From Malacoraja senta (taxonomy: Eukaryota), in assembly GCA_038087875.1 (NCBI GenBank), contig CM075989.1:16680001-16744000 (forward strand): a stretch of 64,000 nt of DNA, in the 5' to 3' direction. The notes under the pieces are model-generated. The model worked only from the letters and a program-made list of their open reading frames with translations. It was not told the DNA's origin and did no database searches. Below, one piece after another: positions 6,401 to 18,025 of this stretch (position 1 is the stretch's first letter; the number at the start of each line of letters is the position of its first letter). The position numbers and the translations under genes were made by a program.

Positions 6401-8659
6401 AGACGGGAGCTGCCAGAGAGGGAGGGGTGGAGTGTAAGGCCCAGGCTGCTGGGTCCCCTGTTCCCAACAATCTGAAAGCTGAGAAGTTTCCAATTTACCA
6501 ACAGTATTTAATCACTAGCTCTATATGATGTCTCCTAAATATTTTTAACTATTATAATTATATTTCATTTTTTCTCATATAAATATCATTTCTATTTTCT
6601 ATTTAATTCCTTTACACGTCACCCTACTCAATGTCCTGCTTTATTGTAATAAATACCATTCCTCTAATATACTTCTGGTATGAGGATGTTTCTTAAATGG
6701 GGTAACGCTGATAGTATAACACAGGAAGGATATTGAGCCCGGCTTGTCTATACCAAGCATTGTGTTTCAAAGGGGCTTCTTCTTCTAACCCTTTTTCCAT
6801 ATCTCCGTTCCTTTCCCATACAACCAGTTATCTAGCCTATTGTGTGTGATTTGATCTTGCCTGCTGTGTCACAATTATATTTACACTTTGCAATCACGAA
6901 ATATAACCTTGGTTATGTCCCTCTGGCTGCACCGTGGAGCATATTGCAGATAGCTCAATTGGATATACTGCCTCTTTTTGTCTCAAAGTTAACTTTGTTA
7001 AGGTAACACAGCAAAGAATCTTTTCCTATATCAAGATAATCTAACGTGTCAAGAACCCGGAAAAGAAAGCAATAACGAGACTACTTGACCACCTGTAAAT
7101 CAGATGAAGCAGCATTCCACCTGACAAAGGAACCTCCTGCTCCTTGGCTGTAGTGGCAGTCTTGCACTTCATATTCCAATTGTAATAACAAGCAATTGCA
7201 CATGCTGGTTTACCAAAGAAAGATACAAAATGCTGGAGTAACTCAGCGGGTCAGCATTTCTGGAGAATATGACGAGGTGACATTTCTGGTCTGGATTCCC
7301 AATGCTTTCTTCTGATCAGAAAGATATGTTTGTGAATGGTTCTTCCCCCTCTGTCTTAGTACCTTCTCAAGGAATTAGAATTCAGGGGGCATTTGCTGAA
7401 TAGGTTAGGTGTCAATTTATATTCCAACTGTTTACAAGAGTGGCCCTGACTTTATGGTCACTAGTTAATGTGATATCCACCTCACCTCCACTTTCTATCT
7501 TCAGTCTCTTCCTTGTGCTGCTCCACTGGGGCATAATGACAAGTGCTTACTCTCATTTTGGTGTGTTACAGCCTTCAAGGCTCAACATTGTGCTTAACAA
7601 TTTCAGAACATTGCAGTGTTCTCACATTTCTATTGACGAGCTTGGTGGATGTTGGGAATAAGCAGGTATTGGTAAACATGTTGCTTTAACCACCTTCATA
7701 TTCTGTATCTGCCCACTACTATCTTTACTGCATATCTTTATCACTCTTGTTATGTAATATCTTCTTCCTCCCTTCACTGCATTTGTACTTAGACTTCTTA
7801 TACCTCCAACTTTTCTCAATTCTCACATTTAGACTTTAACTTTCCAGGAATTCTCCTGACACCCACAGTCTTGGGGAATAGTCTGTGGGTGTCAGGAGAA
7901 AGACTAGTATCTGAAGCTGGAGGGTTTTTGAGTAGCAGCCATCTACTTGAGTACAGTTAACTGTGAGCACAGTCGATAAATATGGTTTATTGTTACTGTT
8001 TAACTTTGAGCTAATAACAGGAGCTTGGTACTAGGAGAAAAATATATAAATTAATATTTGTCCAATTCATGCCCTTGAGGAGAAAAATAAGAGAATTGCT
8101 TTAATTTGTCATCCCTCATGGTCTAAGAAAGTCTTGAAACATTTTATGAGCACTGACACTGAAATGCTAAAGTAAGAAGAAATCATCTAGATCTGATCCT
8201 GAAATCTGCAAACATGTATTTCTATCAAACCTCTTCGTATCCTCAGGATGATCAAACATGTTTCTGTTGTGAAGTAATGTTCCTATTATAGCTGAGGTAA
8301 AGCATTTGCCAATTTGAGCACAACAATGTCTCAAGGACAATAGATGAAAAAGATTACCAGTTAATCTGTTTTCACGATGACAACAGATAAACTTATTTGA
8401 ACCATGTCATGGTTTCTTTTACATCCATCGGAATATATAGCAGGTCTGCTGCCTAATATTTTACCAAAGATACAATACTTCAGATAATACAACACTTGAT
8501 CACGTTCTCAAGGCTCCACATTGAGATTTGAACTTTCAACCTGAGCATTGAACCAGCACTGACAGCTTTGTAAGATGCTGTTCCAAAATTTGCCCTTTTT
8601 TAAACAATTTGAGAAGGTTATGTTGTTTTGGTATAAGAGCGATAATGTTGAACTGGACC

Positions 8660-8965
8660 AACACAGTTGTGTAGCTAATAGAGCCGGTGCCTCACTGTGC
8701 CAGCAACCCATGTTTGATCCTGACTTCTGCAGATGTCTGTGTGTAGTTTGCATGTTCCCCCTCTGTGAGTTTCCACCAGGCATTCTGGTTTCCTCCTACA
8801 TCCCAAAGACTTGCAGGTCAATAGATTTATTAGCCACTGTAAAATGCTGCTCATGTGTCGGTGAATGTCAACATCTAAAGGGATTGGATGGGATTGTGGG
8901 AATACTGTAGGTGGGTACTTGATGTTTGGTGCAGACTCAGTCGGGACAGTGCTGTATGACTATGA
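8660..8965 (+). mobile_element. tRNA-derived V-SINE (HE1-like), degenerate
   Basis: tRNA-like head, V-domain core 'ctgtgtgtagtttgcatgttcccc...gagtttcc' and CR1-like tail 'gtgctgtatgactatga'. Other copies lie near 24990-25140, 41060-41330, 43110-43440, 47120-47330 and 55845-55950. Confidence 0.7.
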
Positions 8966-9107
8966 ATACTTTTAATTCCAATTTTTCAGAATAGGATTAG
9001 CTTTTATTATAAAGAGAAAATTAATGGTTATAAGAACTGAAACAAGATGCAATCAATAAATAAGTATTCCACACTAGACAGTGTAACCTTTCCATATGGA
9101 GTATGAG

Positions 9108-9160
9108 GGGATGGAAGATTGCAACCTTCACGTGGTCCGCCCTGTTTCGACGAATGCAAT
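9108..9160 (+). ncRNA. HDV-like (CPEB3-type) self-cleaving ribozyme fold with minimal P4
   Basis: P1 GGGAUGG 9108-9114 / CCGCCCU 9137-9143 (G1.U wobble, one A.C mismatch). P2 AUUGCA 9118-9123 / UGCAAU 9155-9160. P3 ACC/GGU. L3 UUCACGU. J1.1/4 GU. J4/2 CGAA with putative catalytic C9151. Confidence 0.8.
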
Positions 9161-9251
9161 GAACCTGGCGTGCACAATCAAGTAAGATCAAATAGAACAA
9201 GTTGTCCTACAACTTTAGGCTGTGCACGCCATACGCAAGAAGAAGAAGAAG
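9108..9251 (+). mobile_element. 144-bp non-autonomous retroposon: HDV-like ribozyme head, 3' stem-loop and (AAG)5 tail
   Basis: Flanked by TSD atggagtatgag(g) at 9096-9107/8 and atggagtgtgag(g) at 9252-9263/4. Perfect 10-bp stem 9167-9176/9221-9230. (AAG)5 at 9237-9251. Confidence 0.85.
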
Positions 9252-10199
9252 ATGGAGTGTGAGGTAAAAGGAAAATTATACCATTTGGGATAGGCAGTAA
9301 ATTGAAGGACAATTGCCAGCCAAGGGTATGATCCAATTATTCCAATGTGTCCCTGGTTACCAATGTATCTGCCAATGGATATAGTTCTTCCATTTCTGGG
9401 TGAACCAAAGTGAAAAAAAGATGCAGGTTGGTACAGTTGCTGGCATAAAATATGGGCAGGTGCCATCTCCATGCAAGAGAGGAGCAGCTGTTTGCGCACT
9501 GAAGCAAATCCGTGGGAAGACAAACGGCCACAGCTTCAATTACGGTGCAGACAGGAGGTGCTGCTACTGTTCAGAAAGCTCCGTCAGCACAGTATTCTAT
9601 GTCCTGTAAAGGACATGTCTTTTAATCAAGGAGTTCTCACATTCATCAACATTATTCCATCAAAGGCGGCTGAGTACAATGCCTTCAGCAACTTTACCAA
9701 CCACATTTTTGTTTTGTCGCTTTGGTTCACCTGGAATTGGAAGGAGAAACTGTTTCCATTGGCAGATGCGCAGGTAACCAGGAACACATGAGTGGAATAC
9801 TTTCCCAAAATATCAGCAATGTGAGTTTTCTGCATAATCATCTGTGATCTAGAATACCCCTCATGAAATGGTGCTTGAAGTAGAATCTTTAATTGCTTTT
9901 CGAAAGGAAATTTTACTTCTAAAGTGAGCCAGTGTTTTCTCCTTCTCAAGGGTAAACAGCAGAGAATATGGTCCACAGCAAGATACATTAAAAAGAGTAA
10001 TGAAGTCCTCTAACATGAATTTAGGGAGCTAGGTAGCAAATGATAGAGCAAAACCTGTAAGGTATCATGTACAGGCAATATGGATCATGTACAGGCAGAT
10101 GAGATCAATATAACTGGGCATCGTGTGTGGGCCCAAGGGCTGTTCCTGTGCTGTACTGTTGTTTGTTTTTGTTCTAAGGTTGTAATTCTTTTGATTACT

Positions 10200-17825: not shown

Positions 17826-18025
17826 NNNNNNNNNNNNNNNNNNNNNNNNNNNNNNNNNNNNNNNNNNNNNNNNNNNNNNNNNNNNNNNNNNNNNNNNNNN
17901 NNNNNNNNNNNNNNNNNNNNNNNNNNNNNNNNNNNNNNNNNNNNNNNNNNNNNNNNNNNNNNNNNNNNNNNNNNNNNNNNNNNNNNNNNNNNNNNNNNNN
18001 NNNNNNNNNNNNNNNNNNNNNNNNN
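17826..18025. other. Assembly gap (200 N)
   Basis: Run of exactly 200 N, typical of a fixed-size scaffolding gap. Confidence 0.99.

Follow-up and report, generated by a model that had tools for sequence, protein, structure and literature searches.

Short retrotransposons that carry a ribozyme at the head of an internally deleted LINE are already known, as R2 SIDEs and NARTc. The R2 SIDEs of Drosophila join a 5' HDV-like ribozyme to the 3' end of their parent LINE, are non-coding and are mobilised in trans (Eickbush and Eickbush 2012, PMC3414825, abstract). NARTc, RIME and SIDER of the trypanosomatids (L1Tc/ingi clade) are internally deleted LINEs of the Ingi group that have kept the 5' HDV-like ribozyme, and several NARTc/SIDER-type heads cleave in vitro (PMC4035085, relevant sections). 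Non-autonomous derivatives of Vingi-1_EE are likewise bipartite, with 5' and 3' parts from a Vingi-type LINE, and Vingi is one of the four clades said to form bipartite derivatives (Kojima 2018, PMC5786205, in the part of the text concerned). The element reported here resembles all of these in structure, but it differs from each of the first two groups. R2 SIDEs are rare, rDNA-specific and dependent on an RLE-type parent, whereas our element is dispersed in at least 6,100 copies, has an APE-type parent and bears a 54-nt head without P4. The trypanosomatid elements live in protist hosts with polycistronic transcription, their 77-nt head is also a promoter, and their parent has an RNase H (PMC4035085, same sections); the present element has an animal host, a parent without RNase H and an (AAG)n tail.

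The head itself can be compared with three further systems. The CPEB3 ribozyme (RF00622) has the same length register over positions 1-38, the same L3, the same GU junction, a single P1.1 pair and CGAA, and by eye the family majority is identical to human CPEB3 at 21 of 38 bases over positions 1-38. In contrast, the CPEB3 ribozyme is single-copy and intronic with a 7-bp P4, while the element head lacks P4 and reaches 13.3 bits against a cut-off of 35. Minimal HDV-like ribozymes (drz-Mtgn and the theta ribozymes) resemble it in the absence of the P4 domain and in having the catalytic C first in J4/2; as far as the relevant text of PMC10879173 goes, these occur in metagenomes and gut phages, often beside tRNAs, whereas in the present case a minimal form stands at the start of an animal retrotransposon. 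Finally, SINE2-1_AMi of the alligator is also short and contains a Vingi 5' end, and both arms of its P4 match CPEB3; unlike our element, it has a tRNA head preceding the Vingi part, which is not called a ribozyme in the portion of PMC5786205 that presents it.

The locus lies in a stretch of 64,000 nucleotides (the window), taken from a 1.94-Gb genome assembly (G000). Positions 9108-9251 of the window (144 bases, + strand) are one copy of a young repeat family, delimited as follows.

9096..9107, + strand: left target-site duplication (TSD), 12 bp, or 13 if G9108 is counted (an ambiguity of microhomology)
9108..9251, + strand: the whole non-autonomous element, a Vingi-like LINE derivative with an internal deletion, delimited by its copies, the LINE ends and the empty site
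9252..9263, + strand: right TSD, from flank comparison and the empty site

Self-comparison of the 64-kb window found the element there only once. The 40 top matches to 9108-9251 in G000 were 97-100% identical, and a 29-base head pattern and a 29-base tail pattern, each allowing one mismatch at most, gave 6,107 and 5,213 matches in G000, with none for either reversed control. The tail count takes in LINE ends, and both counts are floors (at least 6,107 and at least 5,213). As the first-pass annotation had predicted, the sequence is therefore multicopy. The features that this annotation had named (P1, P2, P3, L3, the pair C9129-G9144 next to U9128.U9145, J4/2, the stem, its hairpin and (AAG)5) were all found where it had placed them. 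Its TSD of 12-13 bp is present (9096-9107/9252-9263) but contains one mismatch, at position 9103, because of which an exact-match search had missed the duplication. A contig of run X3 that leads from the left flank into the element carries the base at 9103 that makes the TSD perfect. In a contig of run X4, from another organism, the site is empty: 9095 is joined to 9252, and 156 bases (144 + 12) are absent. Near-identical copies were abundant in all four runs compared (organisms A, B and C). Many copies also occur in contigs of run X15; since its RNA status is a guess and contigs reveal neither starts nor strand, these copies carry no weight for expression or cleavage.

Two other structures were observed in the window. 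Just downstream of the element, 9335-9442 is repeated in inverted orientation at 9686-9802 (77% over 118 bases); the two arms are probably the termini of an old MITE or DNA transposon. At 17826-18025 the assembly has a gap of about 200 bases, where self-alignment breaks off.

The element is composed of the first ~77 bases of a LINE, a short linker, the last ~30 bases of the same LINE and (AAG)n. Its parts and its 3' structure are listed below.

9108..9184, + strand: segment taken from the LINE 5' end (element bases 1-77); over 76 of these bases (2-77) it has 85.5% identity with the start of the LINE copy L096
9185..9206, + strand: linker found in neither LINE end, which differs from one subfamily to another and forms the 5' arm of the inner hairpin
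9207..9236, + strand: segment from the LINE 3' end, comprising the last three codons, the stop (9216-9218) and a short 3' UTR
9237..9251, + strand: (AAG)5 tail, common to the element and the partner LINE
9166-9176/9221-9231, + strand: 11-bp stem, in which an arm derived from the 5' UTR pairs with an arm derived from the 3' UTR
9199-9205/9209-9215, + strand: inner hairpin of 7 bp, enclosed by the 11-bp stem

At the 3' side, element bases 100-139 were 97.5% identical over 40 bases to L095 and 89.7% identical to L097, the 3' end of the L096 copy. We are nearly certain that the element, with its minimal ribozyme head, is an internally deleted, bipartite SIDE of a Vingi-like LINE. The first-pass annotation had described a SINE in which a ribozyme was fused to a LINE tail; both parts are there, but they come from one LINE that shares both ends with the element, which makes it a SIDE and not a new class of SINE. 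Among the copies, L090 and L080 retain a longer stretch of the LINE 5' UTR and resemble early deletions. L082, L066, L070 and L078 fall in between, and the same 46-base middle is found in most other copies.

The fold of 9162-9236 was more stable than those of its shuffles (z = -3.9; none of 200 shuffles was as stable). The 10-bp stem with an inner hairpin that had been proposed earlier is present in a slightly longer form, with 11 bp in the stem and 7 bp in the hairpin. In the LINE heads L094 and L096, pair 61-122 is an A.C mismatch, and the short copies mostly have G-C at this pair (19 of 24 in the tail-picked sample). The inner hairpin exists in the short element only and not in the LINE. 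These few copies suggest that the short element gained pairing relative to the LINE.

The partner LINE was recognised from both sides. An ORF ends ahead of the element's tail at L062; its stop codon matches 9216-9218, and its protein end is 63% identical to P0003, a protein of 1,019 aa with endonuclease and RT domains and without RNase H (Pfam). A LINE copy at G000:C8:19402166-19404966, flanked by its own 11-bp TSD, has the element's head and the element's tail and is collinear with P0003 except for one internal deletion. An autonomous-type, Vingi-like LINE that shares both ends with the element therefore exists, and the partner, which the first-pass annotation had guessed to be of the Ingi/Vingi or RTE type, falls on the Vingi side of that guess. 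Vingi elements are described as having a single compact ORF with an APE endonuclease and an RT, no RNase H and a length of about 3 kb (PMC13708176, in the text on Vingi). P0003 and the 999-aa ORF of a related family (family C, see below) gave Pfam matches to EN and RT only. By eye, the partner head matches the Repbase Vingi 5' ends in loops and junctions only. From its domain content and the likeness of its 5' end, we place the partner LINE near Vingi and call it Vingi-like.

Among the best 150 of 2,118 candidates the partner ORF was in no case seen intact, the longest listed frame being 449 aa, and every one of the longer partner-type protein matches in the P0003 search of G000 contained stops. 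To judge by these sequences, the partner LINE looks extinct in G000. A search for the LINE by way of heads that run on into sequence foreign to the family yielded 28 matches; almost all were short-element variants with indels, and not one had an ORF. A body-without-head pattern gave three matches, all of them headed. The top PF14529 family (1,277-aa ORF behind ORF1, (AAG)n tail) was rejected as the partner, its ends not being shared with the element. At L092/L093 (G000:C5:54190900-54195700) there is a young LINE with ORF1, a 1,277-aa ORF2, many intact copies and an (AAG)n tail, which we presume to be Nimb-like.

Several further observations concern the partner LINE. The copies L094/L099 and L098 have an inverted 5' part of the kind left by twin priming, and the two independent inversions both end near ribozyme base 10-11. 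The single copy L096 has an AUG at the border of J4/2 and P2 (element position 47; window equivalent 9154-9156), in frame with the ORF start and 42 codons ahead of the first conserved motif, as if translation could begin within the ribozyme. The C-terminus of the partner LINE is 80% identical to P0002, a protein that carries the name of the eel Synaphobranchus kaupii; this likeness may point to horizontal transfer if the host is not a teleost.

The first 54 bases of the element can be folded as a P4-less ribozyme of the HDV type, with the parts below.

9108..9161, + strand: predicted P4-less HDV-type ribozyme, from sub-cut-off Rfam matches on the copy L007, the descriptor parse and copy statistics
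9108-9114/9137-9143, + strand: P1, with G9108.U9143 at the predicted cut site
9117-9123/9155-9161, + strand: P2, 7 bp in the family and 6 bp in the window copy (9118-9123/9155-9160)
9124-9126/9134-9136, + strand: P3, 3 bp
9127-9133, + strand: L3, the loop in the HDV-type parse
C9129-G9144, + strand: P1.1, a single pair that adjoins U9128.U9145
9146-9150, + strand: P4 remnant, five bases instead of P4
9151-9154, + strand: J4/2, CGAA
9151 (C44), + strand: predicted catalytic cytosine, the first base of J4/2, a role assigned by likeness to HDV-like ribozymes (PMC10879173, in the text on minimal forms)

The predicted cut site, directly 5' of G9108, is the 5' end of the family. An HDV-fold descriptor, written after the element had been seen, matched once in the window, at 9108, and never in 60 dinucleotide shuffles on both strands. 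When L007, a better copy, was scanned against 4,227 Rfam models, the two best were HDV-F-prausnitzii (RF02682, 14.4 bits, cut-off 44) and CPEB3_ribozyme (RF00622, 13.3 bits, cut-off 35), and both matches end at base 54. Both models are of the HDV type, and both scores are under the cut-off. These matches surfaced only in the short scan of L007; a scan of 1.2 kb around the window copy (8600-9800) gave no ribozyme match. Nested-only folding of the head, a model that leaves pseudoknots aside, was no better than for shuffles (z +1.8 and +0.9). The P4 region showed no stable local hairpin among its five bases, which fits the minimal HDV subtype. P4-less HDV-like ribozymes are known from metagenomes and phages and not from animals, in the account given in that part of PMC10879173.

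Copy statistics were drawn from 91 loci; after removal of six duplicated loci and two LINE ends, 83 remained, and 76 of these had both ends and a TSD call. The family majority keeps P1, P2 and P3 intact. The pair G1.U36 is present in 67 of 78 copies and the P1.1 pair C22-G37 in 76 of 77; of 75 copies, 55 have U-G and 13 have U-A at P1 pair 5. The 7-bp P1 of the first-pass annotation applies to the family, but the window copy has 6 of 7 pairs because of an A9111.C9140 mismatch. A9111 had been predicted to be specific to this copy; G is indeed the family base at P1 position 4 (65 of 78 covering copies), although A recurs in 7 of 78. Similarly, the 6-bp P2 holds for the window copy, while the family has 7 bp, and G9161, the base that breaks the last pair, is a private change (1 of 68 copies). 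With mismatches in P1 (A9111) and P2 (G9161), the window copy may be slow, impaired or dead as a ribozyme.

Among 2,817 heads that were otherwise exact over a 34-base pattern, 2,680 had C at the catalytic position. The base that follows was G in 1,407 and non-G (mostly T/U) in 1,273, and Rfam consensuses of the HDV type include CGAA as well as CUAA. At the C44-G45 CpG, about 90 C-to-T changes stand against about 230 G-to-A changes (extrapolated from 100 rows each), and the neighbouring CpG at 9148-9149 has the same bias. Retention of C44 is no proof of selection, since conservation in a young family reflects ancestry and the neighbouring CpG is biased alike. When parses of the element and its sister family C were counted, 8 of the 17 pairs in P1, P2 and P3 had changed on both sides (three in P1, three in P2 and two in P3) and none was broken; L3, the GU junction and J4/2 (CGAA) were identical. 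On this modelled fold, there is good reason to expect that the source copies bear an active ribozyme.

The position of the 5' end was assessed in two samples. The first 30 loci had been picked by full-length likeness and were biased toward full length; the second sample was therefore drawn by the 3' tail only, as the first 30 exact matches to it. Of these tail-picked loci, 25 extend to base 5 or earlier, two are LINE 3' ends (L062 and L065), and the remaining three start at bases 10, 20 and 89. In the 76 copies with both ends, the left TSD ends exactly at G1 in 32, within one base of it in 59 and within two bases in 72, and the TSD is 9-14 bp long in 67, with a mode of 12. Extra bases lie between the TSD and G1 in 20 of the 76. 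Contigs of all four runs (144, 164, 286 and 25 contigs) depart from the element at 9108 into unrelated flanks, with a flank agreement upstream of 9108 of 0.35-0.38, which indicates that the copies have no common upstream sequence or transduction. The accumulation of 5' ends at G1, as proposed in the first-pass annotation, is thus seen both in the TSDs and in the contig breaks. The insertion sites themselves have a bias: in 66 copies, judged by TSD starts, T or C directly precedes the TSD in 47, and the first TSD base is A in 47, the latter partly an effect of the AAG tail.

Further Vingi-like families with ribozyme heads were found in G000, family B being about 48% and family C about 40% identical to P0003 in protein.

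L100, L104, L105 and L106: family B loci; P4 long, L3 UUCUCGU, tail of the AATAAA type
L101, L102/L103, L107-L110, L112-L115 and L117-L121: family C loci, e.g. G000:C8:934560-937700

An HDV-type fold was recognised at the start of family B in L104 and of family C in L108-L110 and L119; 8 of 13 short loci of families C and D gave no parse, owing to point changes or absent P1 strands. The three family C heads scanned with RF00622 scored 64.2, 63.8 and 40.7 bits, all above the cut-off of 35, and the family B head scored 19.9 against the same cut-off. LINEs of family C truly begin with these heads: one TSD is common to L102/L103, and in L121 a 999-aa frame with EN and RT lies directly behind the head. 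Family C is low-copy, with 15 heads in G000 (up to two mismatches) and an (AAG)n tail. That three Vingi-like families of G000 carry HDV-type heads, and that one of them reaches 64 bits on RF00622, appears to be new. Two observations stand beside them. L111 and L116 represent a fourth head type with a CPEB3-like core, a different P4 and CUAA, in which the first P1 strand is missing from both copies. L102:69-216 and L115 (family C) start with three to four tandem repeats of the first ~22-28 ribozyme bases, suggesting repeated template jumps at the 5' junction.

The likeness of such heads to the CPEB3 ribozyme extends to published Vingi entries. The supplement of PMC5786205, in the part concerned, prints the first bases of the Repbase entries Vingi-2_Gav, Vingi-4_Crp and Vingi-1_BF, an internal stretch of Vingi-2_SPur, and SINE2-1_AMi; the human CPEB3 ribozyme is printed in primers of PMC5984629. 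By eye, Vingi-2_Gav was identical to human CPEB3 at 37 of 40 positions over 2-41, in the same numbering, and at all 14 over 54-67, from the end of P4 through P2, so that published crocodilian Vingi 5' ends agree with it at 51 of 54 compared positions; SINE2-1_AMi was identical to it at 25 of 29 over positions 39-67, with differences in the P4 loop only. Because Vingi-2_Gav and CPEB3 run in the same numbering, G1 of the ribozyme is the first base of that Vingi entry. CPEB3-like heads occur in lancelet, sea-urchin and crocodilian Vingi entries and in family C, whose head is, by eye, clearly like those of Vingi-2_Gav, Vingi-1_BF and Vingi-2_SPur. A possible identity of the tested ribozyme drz-Spur-3 with the Vingi-2_SPur head found no support, as the drz-spur-3 primers in PMC5984629 fail to match that head; the sequence of drz-Bflo-2 is not printed in the relevant text of PMC11662937.

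The HDV fold has only about six invariant bases (PMC8256844, in the section on the fold), so the likeness between Vingi and CPEB3 is read as homology rather than convergence, and the wide occurrence of the head in Vingi indicates Vingi as the donor. The ribozyme of mammalian CPEB3 probably goes back to the exaptation of a Vingi 5' end, with the direction and the insertion event read from sequence comparison, and the CPEB3 likeness that the first-pass annotation had spotted in the head looks like common descent through Vingi 5' ends. We consider it likely, with a little less assurance than for the ribozyme activity of the source copies, that the Vingi clade starts with a CPEB3-type ribozyme, that the CPEB3 ribozyme was exapted from the start of a Vingi LINE or of a Vingi-derived short element, and that of all living forms of this lineage the 144-bp family, active, P4-less and with a tail that pairs back, is the most reduced. 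On the CPEB3 question only, it might instead be held that the likeness arose by convergence on the HDV fold or that a host ribozyme was captured by Vingi; folds of the HDV type occur widely and possibly have more than one origin (PMC8256844, same section), and the comparison with the Repbase heads was made by eye. We think this improbable, for with some six invariant bases Vingi-2_Gav nevertheless matches human CPEB3 at 37/40 and 14/14 positions, stems included, and similar heads are spread over lancelet, sea-urchin and crocodilian Vingi and family C, whereas the CPEB3 ribozyme is described as mammalian.

In a literature search lying outside subscription journals, patents, Repbase, Dfam and bioRxiv supplements, no paper was found that links the CPEB3 ribozyme with Vingi, and, within the same limits and in the text portions searched, none that ties Vingi to a ribozyme; among the matches listed for Vingi and sharks, no such family was reported. 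By term counts in the text available of PMC8233481, on CPEB3 ancestry, 'origin', 'retrotranspos' and 'transposable' are absent, and the text available of PMC10919898 names no donor of the CPEB3 ribozyme. A 2020 review suggests in general terms that this ribozyme was domesticated from mobile elements, leaving the donor unnamed in the passage concerned (PMC7761336). A Vingi trace, X12_LINE, is recorded for the human genome in part of PMC5753468. The CPEB3 ribozyme is conserved in mammals and has been tied to memory in mice (PMC10919898, same portion).

Given these results, the following cycle may be proposed. A copy of the element would be transcribed as part of a host transcript, either read-through or intronic. 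The P4-less ribozyme of 54 nt would cut directly 5' of G1 by means of C44 (9151) and so release a unit RNA whose 5' end is fixed. Recognition of the 3' UTR and tail by the LINE protein would follow, aided by the stem that joins the 5'- and 3'-derived arms, and the unit RNA would be inserted in trans by target-primed reverse transcription. Mobilisation in trans by the protein of the parent LINE is suggested by the shared ends, and release from host co-transcripts by self-cleavage is suggested by analogy with R2 SIDEs, the trypanosomatid heads and, in the passage on this point, the review PMC6765202. The head would belong to the lineage of Vingi 5' ribozymes, to which, in sequence, the mammalian CPEB3 ribozyme is the most similar. 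Taken as a whole, the explanation that the element is a SIDE of a Vingi-like LINE, self-released and trans-mobilised, with a head in the CPEB3-like lineage, is one that we hold with considerable confidence.

The same SIDE could also be imagined with a vestigial or secondary ribozyme and a 5' end fixed by an internal promoter like Pr77 of L1Tc. The L1Tc head is promoter and ribozyme at once (PMC8256844, in the text on L1Tc), the element head has lost P4, the 20 of 76 copies with extra bases between TSD and G1 would be in keeping with this view, and sharp 5' ends are also expected from a precise transcription start. Given the double role of the L1Tc head, the label 'promoter-less' in the first-pass annotation is too strong. 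We nevertheless judge it unlikely: the stems are compensated and L3, the junction and the catalytic C are invariant across three LINE families whose proteins are ~40-70% alike, which fits an RNA fold and does not fit a DNA promoter, and the 5' end of the element coincides exactly with the predicted cut site. Far less probable still, to the point of being negligible, is the idea that the element is an ordinary SINE of RNA polymerase III, its head a degenerate tRNA derivative and its ribozyme parse a coincidence. The element is indeed short, non-coding and high-copy with a LINE-type tail, and it has a TTCGA word reminiscent of a B box. However, ARAGORN found no tRNA in 10 of 10 loci and Rfam no tRNA, 5S or 7SL match, in agreement with the absence of such a head claimed in the first-pass annotation; against consensus boxes, the best A-box fit in the head has three mismatches and the 11-base B-box fit four. 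Above all, a protein-coding LINE begins with this head, and this 5' end, common to element and LINE, refutes a tRNA-derived Pol III head. The self-released SIDE of a Vingi-like LINE is accordingly the reading that we prefer.

With Vingi named as the donor clade, the origin of the CPEB3 ribozyme becomes testable by alignment and trees, and Vingi would join the LINE clades with 5' ribozymes. Gene-insertion systems based on Vingi would be affected, as their driver RNA is said to retain the native 5' UTR (PMC13708176, in the text on the driver). The family would provide a natural animal example of a predicted P4-less HDV-type ribozyme in thousands of variants, and it implies some thousands of potential self-cutting sites in the transcripts of G000.
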